From Planctomycetota bacterium (GTDB lineage: Bacteria > Planctomycetota > UBA8108 > SXIK01): a stretch of DNA of 64,000 bases. Positions 14,466-19,132 of the stretch are shown in pieces. The translations under genes were made by a program, and so were the position numbers. Position 1 is the first letter of the stretch; each line of letters begins with the position of its first letter. The stretch covers positions 4,896,001 through 4,960,000 of the forward strand of contig OZ244999.1 of NCBI GenBank assembly GCA_965223265.1, read 5' to 3'. A model generated the notes under the pieces. The model saw only the letters and a program-made list of their open reading frames with translations, searched no databases and was not told where the DNA came from.

Positions 14466-15266
14466 TTAAGTTTCGACCCAATGACGATACAAAGGTCGAA
14501 CGTTCGCAGGCAAGCCCTCGTAGACTTCGCGCCTGATCGCAGGCACCTGATTGTCGCTGCGGCCCGGCTCATCGACCATGCGCCGGCGCTCATCCGAATT
14601 CGGGCGCAGCACGTCGAGGTTCAGCCACCACGGAGCGTAACGCACGGCCAACGCGACACGTGGCACCGACGACTGGTTCGGTGCGGTCGCGTGCCAAAGT
14701 CGGCTGTCGAAAACAAGAACGCTGCCAGCCGGCCCCATCACTTGCATCTGCGCGGAGAGGTCGCGCGCTGGCTCAACTCCCATGCGAGCCGTTGGATTGG
14801 TGGACGATCGGTGACTTCCGGGAACGACGAGCGTACCACCGTTGTCAGCGGTGAACGGACTGAGCATCCAAAGGGTGGTCAGATGCATGGTGGCATCCGG
14901 ATAAGGCGCAGGGACGTGACCCGCGTTGCGCTGATTGAACGGCCAATCCGCATGCCAATCGCCACGCGCGTTCCCTGGTTCGTTGACAATTGCTGAGGTG
15001 AACGAAACGCGCACGTCATGGCCGAGCAGCGAGGTAACGATCTGCAGCAGTCTCGGCTCGGCAAGGTACGGAGCAAACGACTGCTCGTGATTAATGATGC
15101 CGGCACAAAAGCTGACATTCTCTGGCGCAGTGCCCGGCCGGCACTGGCGACGCGCCGCCTCAAGGACGCGCGCTTCGACTTCCTCGCAGCACGCCGCTGG
15201 AATCACCTCCTCGATGACGCAGAAGCCGTGGACCTTCATTTCGAGTTCGAGTCGATCGGGATGCAT
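14466..15266 (-). CDS. Phytanoyl-CoA dioxygenase (PhyH) family Fe(II)/2OG oxygenase
   Basis: WHADWP, NGGTLVVPGSH, GSVLVFDSRLWH; ATG overlaps upstream TAA (TAATG). Confidence 0.88.
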   Translation of the reverse strand: MHPDRLELEMKVHGFCVIEEVIPAACCEEVEARVLEAARRQCRPGTAPENVSFCAGIINHEQSFAPYLAEPRLLQIVTSLLGHDVRVSFTSAIVNEPGNARGDWHADWPFNQRNAGHVPAPYPDATMHLTTLWMLSPFTADNGGTLVVPGSHRSSTNPTARMGVEPARDLSAQMQVMGPAGSVLVFDSRLWHATAPNQSSVPRVALAVRYAPWWLNLDVLRPNSDERRRMVDEPGRSDNQVPAIRREVYEGLPANVRPLYRHWVET

Positions 15267-16771
15267 TAGCGATGGGACTCTGTTCGTCGGCGCGGCAGCG
15301 TGACAAGGCGCCAGTGAACCGCCGAGACGACCGCGCCTGCAAGCAGCGTCACGGTCAATGAGGCCGGGGCGATCCATAGAAAGCTGATCAAGGCGGTGTC
15401 AGTGATTTTCGTACCGAAAGCGATCCAAAGAGACGTCATAGTACCGCAGAACATGCCGGCAAGAGCACCTGCAAGCGTTACAAATGGCATGAAGAGCGCC
15501 ATGACGAAGACTCCAAACAGCGGACCGATGAGAACGTTTGTCGTCCGCTTGGCGACGGCGAGAAAGTTCCCCGGCACTTCCTCCATCAAAGGAGACGCGA
15601 GAACGACCACAAGCCCAATGGCGAACGCCAGAGCCCGCGCGACGCGCAGCTGAAGAGTCGGCGAAAGTGGCTTCGAGCGCAGCTGCGGCAAGAAGTCGGT
15701 AACCACAACAGCGCTGATCGAATTGACGCCCGAGTCGAGACTCGACATCGCGGCGGCGAACATGCCCGCCATGACAAATCCCGAGACGCCCGGAGGCAAT
15801 TCGTGCGAGATGAAGCGTGGAAAGATGAGGTCGGCGCTGACGCCAAGGTTGGGGGCGGTACGGTAGTATCCCAGAAGGGCCAGCCCGACGAGCGCGAGGA
15901 GAGCCATGACGCCGCCGCCGGCAAGGCTGTTGGCGAGATACGAGCGGCGCGCCGAACGCGCGTCCTGAGTCGCCATAAAACGCTGGATAGCTGTCTGATC
16001 GGAACCCGCAGTGCAGACATGCCAGGTCGTCGCGGAGATCAAGACACCGAAGACGGAGGCGCGGACACGAGGATCGAGACTGAAAAATGGTTGCGTGTCC
16101 CAAGTCTCGACCCACGCGGTAGGAAACCAGTGAAACCCACCGACTCGAACAGTGATGGTCCCAAGAACAAGCAGCGTGCCACCGGCGAGCAAGGCGAACT
16201 GAATTGCGTCGGTGATCATGACCGCACGCAGGCCACCAAGGGCGGAATAGACGACAGCGACACCGCCGATCAGGAACGTGACGAGCGTTCGCGCTTCTGG
16301 CTCGAGGTCGAGCATCACCCGAAGGGCGTCCGCGATAAAGTAGACGAGAAGCGACATCCAAACGAGTCGAATAGCGACGAACGATGCGGCTCCAACGATC
16401 CGAGCGGGACGACCAAAGCGCGCACCTAAGATTTCGTAGGCGCTCGTGACGCGATGTTTCATCAACGCTGGAATGAGTAGGTAGCCGACGACTATGTACG
16501 CAAACGGGATCGCGAGCAGGCCTGCGAGCGTCGCCGGCCCCTTGGCGTACACTTCGCCCGGCGTCGAGAGAAACGTAATGGTGCTGAAGAGCGTCGCGAA
16601 GAGCGAAATGCCGACGAGGACTGGATTCATGCGACGATTGGCGACGAAGTACTCTTCGCCGCTCGACTGCCGCCGGCCGTAGTACCAACCGAGAGCGGTC
16701 ACGACAGCGACGTAAACGCCCACGATGGTGATATCAATCCAGTGAAGGCCGGGTGCGTCCGGGGGTGGCAC
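15266..16771 (-). CDS. Sodium:solute symporter (SSS/SLC5) family transporter
   Basis: EEYFVANR, GISLFATLFSTITFL, GGLRAVMITDAIQ, DQTAIQRF, AAAMSSLDSGVNS; many TM helices. Confidence 0.93.
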   Translation of the reverse strand: MPPPDAPGLHWIDITIVGVYVAVVTALGWYYGRRQSSGEEYFVANRRMNPVLVGISLFATLFSTITFLSTPGEVYAKGPATLAGLLAIPFAYIVVGYLLIPALMKHRVTSAYEILGARFGRPARIVGAASFVAIRLVWMSLLVYFIADALRVMLDLEPEARTLVTFLIGGVAVVYSALGGLRAVMITDAIQFALLAGGTLLVLGTITVRVGGFHWFPTAWVETWDTQPFFSLDPRVRASVFGVLISATTWHVCTAGSDQTAIQRFMATQDARSARRSYLANSLAGGGVMALLALVGLALLGYYRTAPNLGVSADLIFPRFISHELPPGVSGFVMAGMFAAAMSSLDSGVNSISAVVVTDFLPQLRSKPLSPTLQLRVARALAFAIGLVVVLASPLMEEVPGNFLAVAKRTTNVLIGPLFGVFVMALFMPFVTLAGALAGMFCGTMTSLWIAFGTKITDTALISFLWIAPASLTVTLLAGAVVSAVHWRLVTLPRRRTESHR

Positions 16772-17133
16772 GATGAAGTCTCTCCGTCAGCTTTGAGGAG
16801 CTTGTCGAATCGGGCGTTGATCGTAACGTTCCCATGTCCGATTGCGTACCGTGGAGCGGTCATGTGACTTCGTGCCCGAGCCCGTAGACGGGGCTGCGTG
16901 CCAGCGGTCGGTGTGTGAGTCCGACCGGGAGGCCGCTCCGGAATGCGTTTGCGTGGGCGTGGACATCTCCTATAGTAGCCGGCGCGCCACATGCCATCCG
17001 GTCTTGCGGGCGAGAGCTGGACGTACCGGTACTCTGCTGCTGACTCTCTATCTGCGTCTGATTCCGTATCCGTATCCGCCTCCCCGCCAAACCCACCGCG
17101 CCAACTAGTGCACGGCGGGCCAAGGCTCCCGAG

Positions 17134-17457
17134 TCAGCGCGTCAGTTTCCAGAGCATTGCCTGCAGCCGATCGACGTCCGCGAGCACCGCAGCAGCCTCG
17201 GCTTGATCAATGTAGCCCCATGCCTCAGCAACCTTGAGCGCCGTGCGCACTTCCTCGGCACTACCCGAAGCAATGCGCCAAAGATGCCCGCGGTCACGAC
17301 CCTGACGCCGATTTCCCTCGCCAAGGTTGAGCGCGACCGACGAACCAGCATCGCGCAGTTGAGCGGCCAGCTTCGAATCGTGACGACGGATGCTCGAGAC
17401 AAGGGGACGCAGCTGACGAACAATGCCAAAAGTGTGATCCAGAACGAGAAAGCTCAT
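17134..17457 (-). CDS. Four helix bundle protein (23S rRNA-IVP / bAvd-like family)
   Basis: 107 aa, LAAQLRDAGSSVALNLGEG..R....HLWRIASGSAEEVRTAL..A..WGYI family signature; GGAG RBS. Confidence 0.88.
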   Translation of the reverse strand: MSFLVLDHTFGIVRQLRPLVSSIRRHDSKLAAQLRDAGSSVALNLGEGNRRQGRDRGHLWRIASGSAEEVRTALKVAEAWGYIDQAEAAAVLADVDRLQAMLWKLTR

Positions 17458-17524
17458 GTGTGACTCCGGTAACGGCTGAGTGACCTGTCGCCGGCGCCCG
17501 ACGCGGCGGCGTTTCACTCCCGCC

Positions 17525-17603
17525 AACCGAAGCAGAGACGGGGTCAAGGGCGCGAAGCGCCGAGCGCAGCGAGGACACCCTTGAGGCCGGCTCTGCTTCG
17601 GTT
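17525..17603. other. Long imperfect inverted repeat upstream of the four-helix-bundle gene
   Basis: AACCGAAGCAGAG(17525-37)/CTCTGCTTCGGTT(17591-603) and TCAAGGG/CCCTTGA arms; loop holds CGCGAAGCG and GCGCAGC mini-hairpins. Confidence 0.75.
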
Positions 17604-17605
17604 AA

Positions 17606-17764
17606 CAGCCCGTTGAAAAAGTCATTCGGCTGAGAAACCGGCCTCTTCACGCCCAGATCAGCCGCGGCGAGCCTCGAAAATCTCGGAGATTACCTGCGTT
17701 CGCCGCGGCCGATCTGGACGCGAAGCGACCAGTTTTCAGCTCGAAGCACTTTTTCAACAGGCTG
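17606..17764. mobile_element. MITE, copy 1 (IS5/IS1182-like ends)
   Basis: 17-bp TIRs CAGCCCGTTGAAAAAGT / ACTTTTTCAACAGGCTG, TTAA on both flanks; homologous to 57231-57408. Confidence 0.85.
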
Positions 17765-17850
17765 TTAAGATCGACCAAACCGCCGCCGAACGCACGCCCC
17801 GAGCAGCAGAGCTCTTCTCTACCTCCGGCTCGATCGCCGCGGCCGCACCG

Positions 17851-17970
17851 GTTTGCGTTTGCGTTTGCGTTTGCGTTTGCGTTTGCGTTTGCGTTTGCGT
17901 TTGCGTTTGCGTTTGCGTGGGCGTTTGCGTGGGCGTTTGCGTGGGCGTGGGCGTGGGCGTGGGCGTGGGC
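17851..17970 (+). repeat. Hexamer tract (GTTTGC)x11 grading into GTGGGC
   Basis: Directly visible. Confidence 0.95.
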
Positions 17971-17971
17971 C

Positions 17972-18296
17972 GAAAGTAGCAGGCACACTCCCGTGTGCCG
18001 TCCGGTCTTGTGTGGGCGTGGGCTGAAAGTAGCAGGCACACTCCCGTGTGCCGTCCGGTCTTGTGTGGGCGTGGGCTGAAAGTAGCAGGCACACTCCCGT
18101 GTGCCGTCCGGTCTTGTGTGTGAGCGTGGGCGTGGGCGTGGGCGTGAGCGTGGGCTGAAAGTAGCAGGCACACTCCCGTGTGCCGTCCGGTCTTGTGTGG
18201 GCGTGTGCGTGGGCTGAAAGTAGCAGGCACACTCCCGTGTGCCGTCCGGTCCTGTGTGTGCGTGTGCGTGTGCGTGGGCGTGGGCGTGGGCGTGGG
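17972..18296 (+). repeat. Five direct copies of a 43-bp GTAG-type REP-like hairpin separated by hexamer runs
   Basis: GAAAGTAGCAGGCACACTCCCGTGTGCCGTCCGGTCTTGTGTG at 17972, 18025, 18078, 18157, 18216; stem GGCACAC/GTGTGCC. Confidence 0.9.
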
Positions 18297-18319
18297 ACCA
18301 GTACGCGGCCTGCGCCTCG

Positions 18320-18590
18320 GTCTCCGTCTCCGTCTCTGACCCGGTCTCCGTCTCCGTCTCTGACCCCGTCTCCGTCTCCGTCTCTGACCCGGTCTCCGTC
18401 TCCGTCTCTGACCCCGTCTCCGTCTCCGTCTCTGACCCGGTCTCCGTCTCCGTCTCTGACCCGGTCTCCGTCTCCGTCTCTGACCCCGTCTCCGTCTCCG
18501 TCTCTGACCCGGTCTCCGTCTCCGTCTCTGACCCCGTCTCCGTCTCCGTCTCTGACCCCGTCTCCGTCTCCGTCTCTGACCCCGTCTCCG
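18320..18590 (+). repeat. 11 x 24-bp tandem repeat GTCTCCGTCTCCGTCTCTGACCC(C/G)
   Basis: TGACC recurs every 24 bp from 18337 to 18577. Confidence 0.95.
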
Positions 18591-18625
18591 CCCACCTCTC
18601 CCCGCTCTTCACCGCCGCCGAGCAA

Positions 18626-18674
18626 TTGCCCTCGCCAAATCAAGCTGATAAACTGGATACGCGGATCCAATTTA
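18626..18674 (+). promoter_or_regulatory. rrf2 promoter with overlapping palindromic operator
   Basis: TTGCCC(18626)-17 nt-TAAACT(18649); palindrome AAACTGGAT-ACGCGG-ATCCAATTT at 18650-18673. Confidence 0.7.
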
Positions 18675-18688
18675 TGGAGCGAGCCCCG

Positions 18689-19132
18689 ATGCTCTCCCAG
18701 ACCACCGAATACGCCCTCCGAGCTGCGGTCTGCTTGGCGCGCGACTCCGAGGTCGCCAAGACGACAGCGGAGATCTCGCACGCCACGCAAGTGCCGAGCG
18801 CGTACTTGTCCAAAGTGCTCCAAGGGCTAAGCCGCGCCGGGCTGGTCAAATCGCAGCGTGGCCTCCACGGCGGCTTCATGCTGGCTGAGTCCCCGAGCCG
18901 GGTGACGATCCTCGCGATCATCGATGCCGTCGAACCGATCCGCCGGATCGAGACCTGCCCGCTCGATCTTCCCGGGCACGGAACGAAGCTCTGCGCGCTC
19001 CACAGTCGCCTTGATGATGCGATCGCCCATGTCCAGACAGCGTTCCGAACAACGACGCTCGCCGAGGTGCTCGAAGAGCGCGGCGGTGCCGTGGCGCTCT
19101 GTCCCGTGCCGAAAGAGAAAAAACGCACGTAG
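18689..19132 (+). CDS. Rrf2 family transcriptional regulator
   Basis: [12 protein letters not shown]..., [27 protein letters not shown] wHTH; CPL..HG..LC.LH; GGAG RBS at 18676. Confidence 0.92.

Follow-up and report, generated by a model that had tools for sequence, protein, structure and literature searches.

A repeated Avd-like gene cassette tied to polar hexamer tracts in a Planctomycetota genome

Solo Avd-like/S23p proteins are common in bacteria, and we know of no function assigned to them since the intervening sequences (IVSs) of ribosomal RNA (rRNA) were described in 1993. Here we analyse one such gene and the repeats around it in a window of 64,000 nucleotides (G000:4896001-4960000) from the genome of a Planctomycetota bacterium (G000), a single 9.18-Mb contig with 60.8% G+C. 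The locus is intergenic, with a gene for an SSF symporter on one side and a gene for an Rrf2 regulator on the other, and it is a mosaic of four repeat systems whose core is one copy, of subtype A, of a repeated cassette. The reading that we favour, with about even confidence, is that the cassettes form a selfish, IVS-like, recombinase-less family tied to polar hexamer tracts. Five-digit coordinates below refer to the window and longer ones to the genome.

Three described systems resemble the cassette or its surroundings: 23S rRNA IVSs, Avd of diversity-generating retroelements (DGRs), and repetitive extragenic palindromes (REPs) with their doublet forms (REPINs). The IVSs of Leptospira and Coxiella burnetii (S23p) have in common with the cassette a PF05635 gene, a small unit with one open reading frame (ORF), a strong stem-forming sequence and no recombinase. 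In the accessible part of PMC4990558, rRNA IVSs are presented as long suspected of being selfish or mobile, with the mobile-element hypotheses left undecided, and the Coxiella IVS as having a 28-bp terminal stem and being excised by RNase III. The cassette differs in that it is intergenic, an Rfam search of positions 16500-19000 giving no rRNA match and nothing on the leader; that its long stem lies wholly 5' of the ORF, which is not enclosed; that its flanks are direct hexamer tracts and not terminal inverted repeats; and that 39 copies in two mirror-oriented subtypes are present in one genome. Because it stands outside rRNA and has no inverted ends enclosing the ORF, the locus is not a 23S rRNA IVS.

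A DGR survey equates PF05635 with Avd in the portion of its text at hand (PMC10053308), and the window protein indeed has the four-helix-bundle fold of Avd, its gene lying beside structured nucleic acid. Sequence identity is only ~10%. As no reverse transcriptase (RT) is adjacent, the locus is not a DGR. REPs with a GTAG tag have been reported in Planctomycetes (PMC3733652, as far as the available text goes); those of the locus likewise have the GTAG tag and a 7-bp stem, and the genome contains a REP-flanked Y1_Tnp gene, the difference being that the REPs of the locus are embedded in hexamer tracts. Literature searches, which did not cover subscription journals, turned up no paper that connects PF05635 genes with tandem repeats at their flanks and no account of hexanucleotide repeats in Planctomycetes.

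The cassette and its copies in the genome

By profile score and by the fold of its structural model, the window protein is a member of the PF05635 family. It scores 56.7 bits against PF05635 (cut-off 33.8; 3.3e-15) and 58.5 bits against TIGR02436 (cut-off 24; 6.8e-16), and the profile matches 2gsc at 5.2e-15. The AlphaFold2 (AF2) model has a pLDDT of 95.4, with predicted helices at residues 2-24, 28-49, 53-79 and 85-106; a Foldseek search with this model gave TM-scores of 0.88 to 2rld_E and 0.89 to 2gsc_E, S23-family pentamers whose entries have five chains each, and of 0.85 and 0.83 to the DGR Avd structures 8ub7_E and 4dwl_D.

The first-pass annotation of this DNA had called the gene lone, which is true locally and fails genome-wide: a search with the PF05635 profile gave 39 matches, 36 of them over the cut-off. 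Sorted by eye from their translations, they fall into subtype A (18 copies, MGFLALDH..., the window copy included) and subtype B (21 copies, MRFIALDV...), whose proteins are 49% identical. Intact ORFs of 321 nt are present in 17/18 A and 19/21 B copies. The ratio dN/dS is 0.144 in A (17 intact copies, 134 pairs) and 0.130 in B (170 pairs), every pair being below 1, at a median dS of 0.55 and 0.62, respectively; the ORFs are under purifying selection.

All 39 copies differ from one another (77-97% identity), and each lies in distinct unique flanks. At seven loci an A and a B copy form a convergent pair within a common composite of ~1.8 kb (75-97% identity), the outer flanks of the pairs being unrelated except for one segmental duplicate. 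Unit boundaries are common to the copies and the outer flanks differ. Remnants also occur, namely seven matches to the hairpin core away from any PF05635 match and three degraded ORFs.

The unit so delimited measures ~0.65 kb and consists of a ~230-nt leader, the 107-aa Avd-like ORF, a GC-rich 3' hairpin and a degenerate GANNCR tract (gene strand). The window copy has the following parts, those on the gene strand being marked -:

17031..17080, -: degenerate class-1 hexamer tract (GANNCR on the gene strand, TCYGNN on the + strand) directly 3' of the 3' hairpin; from the sequence and Tandem Repeats Finder (TRF)
17090..17122, -: GC-rich 3' hairpin after the stop codon, GGCCCGCCGTGC...GCGCGGTGGGTTTGG on the gene strand; by eye and from the alignment of A copies
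17134..17457, -: gene for the 107-aa four-helix-bundle protein, PF05635/TIGR02436, subtype A; from the ORF list and profile search
17458..17601, -: proximal leader with the Shine-Dalgarno sequence GGAG, a second hairpin and the long hairpin; from the alignment to other A copies
17525..17603, -: long leader hairpin with inner stem TCAAGGG/CCCTTGA and a variable outer stem; from folding and covariation
17769..17850, -: distal leader, continuous with the hairpin in copies that are free of the miniature inverted-repeat transposable element (MITE) found here; from genome comparison

Homology of the window copy to other A copies runs over 17030-17604 and then over 17764-17870, the proximal leader being 90-95% identical and the coding sequence (CDS) 79-89%. 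The distal leader (17769..17850) has 11 matches in the genome, its own place among them, and in the MITE-free copies the two leader halves are contiguous, at 2327334/2327344, 8820118/8820127 and 404432/404442. The degenerate class-1 tract at 17031..17080 is homologous in other A copies (72-88%) and is passed on together with the cassette; its hexamers at 17051-17080 read TCTGCG TCTGAT TCCGTA TCCGTA TCCGCC, and TRF calls a period of 6 at 17063-17078. The 3' hairpin received no call in a strict terminator scan.

The two arms of the 79-bp leader hairpin (17525-17550 and 17578-17603) are of 26 nt each and 88% complementary. The RNA of 17440-17610(-) folds at -87.4 kcal/mol (z = -4.2), and none of 200 shuffles was as stable. 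The leader is homologous among subtypes A and B, G007 (a genome of another family) and G021 (another family of the same class); common to these leaders are the inner stem TCAAGGG/CCCTTGA, a variable outer stem, a second hairpin and a Shine-Dalgarno sequence. Covariation was assessed on 35 distinct leaders, after 8 of 45 rows had been dropped (two hairpin-deleted, five element-interrupted and one at a contig end). Pairing reaches 95.7% in the outer stem, with two-sided changes in 5/6 pairs, and 95.6% in the inner stem; in controls with the partner column slid by 1-3 positions it drops to 24-54%, and to 24-47% for the outer stem. Since one U.G pair of the hairpin is invariant, it is the sense strand that folds. 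Median leader identity is 0.877 in A and 0.872 in B, against 0.701 and 0.682 at third positions of the CDS and 0.707 and 0.627 over the 60 nt after the stop codon. Compensatory changes have thus preserved the long hairpin, and the leader is better conserved than synonymous sites are. Since neither paralogues nor relatives count as independent samples, these covariation figures, like the enrichment figures below, are descriptive and not probabilities; the counts of REP-flanked copies, the 3' hairpins and the placing of Shine-Dalgarno sequences within stems were, like the subtype sorting, made by eye from printed sequence.

In all, 37 matches to the hairpin core are located at cassettes, so that the 5' hairpin which the first-pass annotation had proposed to look for in paralogs does recur with them. 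The whole hairpin part of the leader is lost by internal deletion at 5176314-5176547, where the ORF is intact, and at 385791-385901.

Hexamer tracts beside the cassettes and beside their relatives

TRF called 719 merged loci with a period of 6 or a multiple of 6 across the genome; together with runs of phased patterns this gave 764 tract loci (49.4 kb). Two classes of motif predominate: class 1 is GANNCR (TCYGNN on the other strand), and class 2 is ACGCCC, ACGCAA, ACGCAC and similar (GTGGGC, GTTTGC and GTGTGC on the other strand). A class-1 run followed on the same strand, within 40 nt, by a class-2 run was found in 34 cases, the reverse order in none. A conserved palindromic junction of the two classes, GTACCGGYAC, was considered and dropped: only one of its 59 occurrences passed the flank filter, and the linkers of the 34 composites vary. 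Hexamer microsatellites in a bacterium can thus be polar, composite and strand-biased, which is unusual in itself.

Association with the cassettes was assessed in fixed windows of 300 nt on each side, with 20,000 random positions as a control. A tract is present upstream of 30/39 cassettes, downstream of 33/39, on both sides of 24/39 and on at least one side of all 39, against 2.65% upstream, 2.6% downstream and 0.16% on both sides for the random positions. As an intergenic control, 13/217 MITE loci have a tract on either side inside the same 300 nt, and one of the 217 has tracts on both. The enrichment of hexamer tracts around paralogs, which the first-pass annotation had suggested as a check, was therefore found. 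Six of the nine copies that have no upstream tract carry a 2.74-kb element inserted in the leader.

The association is also polar. Near A copies, class-1 runs occur on the gene strand only (16/18, the other two having none), and near B copies on the opposite strand only (18/21, three having none), with no exception among the 34 informative copies. Seventeen of the 18 A copies are co-directional with replication and 17 of the 21 B copies are head-on. Shared 10-mers between the two flanks are more often direct than inverted in 31/39 copies, more often inverted in 3/39 and tied in 5/39; on this count, flanks built as inverted arms were rejected for this genome. A class-2 type tract stands at the same leader boundary in other A copies, the leader-side tracts being long and nearly perfect (up to ~45 units), and tract motifs differ from copy to copy. 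One tract begins 11 nt past the stop codon of a neighbouring gene. The cassettes are, in sum, specifically and polarly associated with hexamer tracts.

Elsewhere in the genome, a long class-1 tract at 805066-805552 (GAGACA/GAGGCG units, then complementary TCTG-type ones) has coding-looking sequence on both sides and may lie within a gene, as an acidic low-complexity linker.

Among the 31 genomes searched, this one included, PF05635 matches occurred in seven. All three same-family genomes, one of them in four contigs, gave none, and six more distant genomes gave 13 (G007), 4 (G017), 3, 3, 1 and 1. Subtype A proteins are 62-64% identical to those of G007, against 49% to subtype B. The expansion of the cassette is lineage-specific. 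In G007 and G017, PF05635 genes (e.g. L014, L015 and L016) often lie a few hundred bases from contig ends, as would be the case if short-read assemblies broke at the repeat flanks, so that copy numbers in draft genomes are probably underestimated.

Most of 16 loci from these relatives have arrays of period 6 or 7 adjoining the gene, and some have inverted arms, which were seen in L002, L006, L029 and L030. A wider scan, with an alignment of seven sequences as query and one genome per species, gave 591 pattern matches and at least 30 confirmed loci; the confirmed relatives among the matches listed belong to Planctomycetota, Myxococcota, Bdellovibrionota and others. Again among the matches listed, 20/30 loci have an array of at least 40 nt with a period of 6, 12, 18 or 24 within 500 nt of the gene, and arrays occur on 27/47 proximal sides, against 4/39 sides at 1001-1500 nt. 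Thirteen of these loci were folded, most of which have a long hairpin directly upstream of the start codon, and several of these hairpins include the Shine-Dalgarno sequence (by eye). In L029, L035, L040, L048, L050 and L052 (Myxococcota and Planctomycetota) that sequence lies in the 3' arm of a long hairpin; inside a stem, it would leave translation blocked unless the stem were opened or cut.

Selfish family or host genes

We read the cassette as a relative of the ORF-bearing 23S rRNA IVSs that has multiplied in this lineage and resides only beside polar hexamer microsatellites. As to how it might spread, the Avd-like protein would, by analogy with Avd in DGR particles, bind the leader structure of the transcript that encodes it, or the same strand in DNA form; new copies would arise through strand-specific, replication-linked or tract-guided recombination performed by host or trans-acting enzymes; and the tracts would serve as landing or retention sites and not be products of the cassette. 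The first-pass annotation had already taken the gene to mark a repeated unit tied to hexamer tracts and without a recombinase of its own, and to this extent its proposal is borne out. Whatever their origin, 36 intact copies, a leader structure under selection, strict microsatellite polarity and two mirror subtypes offer a testable handle on function and mobility.

Several points weigh against this reading. No movement was seen, and no empty site, target duplication or polymorphism, the nearest genomes being ~40% identical in flanking protein; when empty sites were sought by synteny, the best matches of the flanking symporter in three same-family genomes were only 32-43% identical. The unit has no recombinase and none is consistently nearby, a scan for sigma-70 promoters over 16900-18000 returned no site, and the putative binding of the leader by the protein is proposed by analogy with Avd. 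Tract loci outnumber cassettes about 20 to 1 (764 vs 39), and the tracts are themselves biased by replichore: with the minimum of cumulative GC skew at 7.9 Mb and the maximum at 3.5 Mb, class 1 reads as GANNCR on the leading strand in 116/164 runs and class 2 as ACGCCC in 122/183, so that part of the cassette polarity could come from the surroundings. Finally, the copies are old (median dS 0.55-0.62), yet 36/39 ORFs are intact and under strong purifying selection, a pattern that a useful host gene family would explain no less well than a selfish element would.

A domesticated multi-copy host gene family, possible though on balance unlikely, is accordingly the rival that survives best. Its proteins would work for the cell, for instance by binding RNA or DNA; the leader would be an ordinary regulatory 5' untranslated region (UTR), perhaps autoregulatory or an RNase III site; and the tracts would grow by replication slippage promoted by strong hairpins. 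Long maintenance of the ORFs (dN/dS 0.13-0.14 at the dS given above), selection on the leader and a Shine-Dalgarno sequence ahead of each ORF are what such a family would have, and in Myxococcota relatives the long 5' hairpin holds the Shine-Dalgarno sequence, as a translational switch would. Distribution and context argue the other way: the gene is absent from all three same-family genomes searched and patchy elsewhere, the unit keeps fixed boundaries in unrelated contexts, as with the tract that follows a neighbour's stop codon by 11 nt, gene-less remnants exist, and family members have been reported inside cas operons (PMC3936711, in the part of that article available). Moreover, MITEs, also strong hairpins, have tracts near only 13/217 loci, so hairpins alone do not make tracts.

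The selfish reading can also be widened. PF05635 cassettes at large would then be widespread recombinase-less mobile elements that home strand-specifically into polar hexamer microsatellites at replication; a pentamer of the Avd-like protein with the structured leader, as RNA or as a displaced DNA strand, would form the integration particle; and A would be adapted to one strand of a tract and its mirror subtype B to the other. We judge this joint proposal decidedly unlikely; if it were true, rRNA IVSs would be a special case, in which a cassette landed in an rRNA helix.

The first-pass annotation had favoured the reverse relation, in which the cassette protein and a trans-acting enzyme generate or expand the tracts, so that these are cassette products. 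The universal presence of tracts at the 39 cassettes speaks for it, as do the long near-perfect tracts on the leader side (to ~45 units), which suggest recent growth, and the occurrence of GAAGCAGAG in both the upstream unit CAGAAGCAGAGA and the hairpin arm of paired A copies. Ordinary slippage explains perfect tracts, and tract motifs differ between copies. Class-1-then-class-2 composites occur without cassettes (34 in order and 0 reversed), and tract loci are so much more numerous than cassettes, and have a polarity of their own, that the cassette is not needed in cis for tract formation. The search of the genome for RT and RAYT (REP-associated tyrosine transposase) genes that the first-pass annotation had called for located both kinds; the RTs are four group II intron copies far away, the only ones in the genome, and the RAYT gene lies elsewhere. 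Because tracts outnumber cassettes ~20 to 1, we hold tract generation by the cassette to be improbable.

That RAYT gene raises the possibility that the RAYT mobilised cassettes lying between two direct REPs, in the form of single-stranded DNA; the strand bias would follow from this. A REP-flanked RAYT-like Y1 transposase does exist in the genome, and the cassettes are strongly oriented relative to replication. The B copies at 5662765, 5649708 and 4592970 have same-orientation REPs at about -320 and +315, and the window copy lies between upstream REPs and a downstream degenerate REP-like unit. REP matches, however, were found in the mapped flanks of only ~12/39 cassettes (counted by eye), which is why we regard this explanation as very improbable; the cassette's own hairpins have no GTAG tag, and many relatives in other phyla have tracts but, by eye, no such REPs.

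That the arrays or the cassette copies come from mis-assembly is barely credible, for although 17175-18560 is not bridged by the short-read Logan contigs of four runs, the genome assembly consists of a single 9.18-Mb contig, the 39 copies differ (77-97% identity) within different unique flanks, and the same architecture recurs in independent assemblies of other taxa.

The repeat mosaic of the locus

All features listed for this locus by the first-pass annotation were found in place when checked by sequence, TRF, repeat comparison and folding. Around the cassette parts given above, the locus and its borders contain:

15266-16771, -: SSF symporter gene
16944..16963, +: short class-2 hexamer tract GCGTTT GCGTGG GCGTGG left of the cassette; repeat family D4, a direct match to the tract at 17841-17960
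16965..17014, +: degenerate REP-like unit TAGTAGCC... with tail TGCCATCCGGTCTTG; repeat family D5
17606..17764, no strand assigned: palindromic MITE in the leader, with TTAA on both sides (17602-17605 and 17765-17768)
17851..17970, +: class-2 hexamer tract (GTTTGC)n(GTGGGC)n abutting the 5' end of the leader; from TRF
17971..18296, +: five GTAG-tagged REP hairpins (AAAGTAGCAGGCACACTCCCGTGTGCC), with GTGGGC/GTGTGC/GTGAGC hexamers between and after them
18320..18590, +: array of 11.3 x 24 bp (GTCTCC GTCTCC GTCTCT GACCCC), class-1-type; from TRF, 97% matches
18689-19132, +: Rrf2 regulator gene

A DUF1501 gene is a further neighbour. The window has no match to PF00078 or PF01797, all matches of the genome to these families lying elsewhere; no search was made for cas genes or DDE transposases. 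Array lengths are those of the assembly, since the short-read Logan contigs of runs X1-X4 break off at 17162-17174 and begin again at 18561.

The MITE and the REPs, which had been taken as parts of one system with the gene, are separate passengers of the locus and lie outside the cassette. The palindrome of 167 bp at 17602-17768 is an insertion into the leader, since homology to A copies stops at 17604 and resumes at 17764. The element, read as 17606-17764, is a MITE, with terminal inverted repeats of 16 nt, CAGCC(C/T)GTTGAAAAAG, a TTAA duplication and no ORF; other cassette copies have the uninterrupted site GTCGATC(G/T)TAACCGAAG. Across the genome, 217 merged loci measure 140 nt or more. Two sub-threshold Rfam matches resembling plant miRNAs both fall on this palindrome, and the sole terminator-like site found by the terminator scan is inside it.

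The five REP copies (repeat family D3), spaced 53, 53, 79 and 59 nt, are part of a REP/RAYT system. The genome has 253 REP matches of at least 30 nt, 108 of them with a tract within 40 nt. Its Y1_Tnp gene (L021, G000:4206488-4207147; 215 aa, 26.4 bits against a cut-off of 23) has REPs on both sides. This single RAYT-like gene has REPs upstream and, downstream, a REP array interleaved with GCACAC/GCTCAC hexamers, so that class-2 hexamers travel with REPs. Within the degenerate REP-like unit left of the cassette, 16992-17014 has the orientation of the five REPs and shares 74-83% identity with their tails, and a blastn search with a REP query gave no match over 16965..17014.

The 24-bp array stops 99 nt short of the Rrf2 start codon (18689); if it grew or shrank, the promoter region of the regulator gene could be altered. 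In the repeat-pair comparison, the array units showed complementarity to the leader hairpin in its 5' arm.

The only RTs of the genome, four RVT_1 copies with the same match score, lie far from the window at 1895227-1896576, 3424405, 3516453 and 5913461 (1.90, 3.42, 3.52 and 5.91 Mb). The copy scanned carries the group II intron maturase domain GIIM, and the four equal scores suggest a recently active group II intron.

The 2.74-kb element that interrupts six leaders has an ORF for a large serine recombinase of 696 aa, with Resolvase, Recombinase and Zn_ribbon_recom domains, and another of 104 aa with no family match. Its six copies, 99.3-99.9% identical, lie at 2581199, 6779080, 7186418 (to 7189159, L020), 8597833, 8835385 and 8979568, all at the same point at the base of the B-leader hairpin, the junction reading ...GCTCGCGGGTGT / element / GTCAAGGG... 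Six insertions at one point indicate that the hairpin base serves as a DNA site for at least one site-specific recombinase, and the element looks like a site-specific integrative element with the cassette leader as its attachment site.

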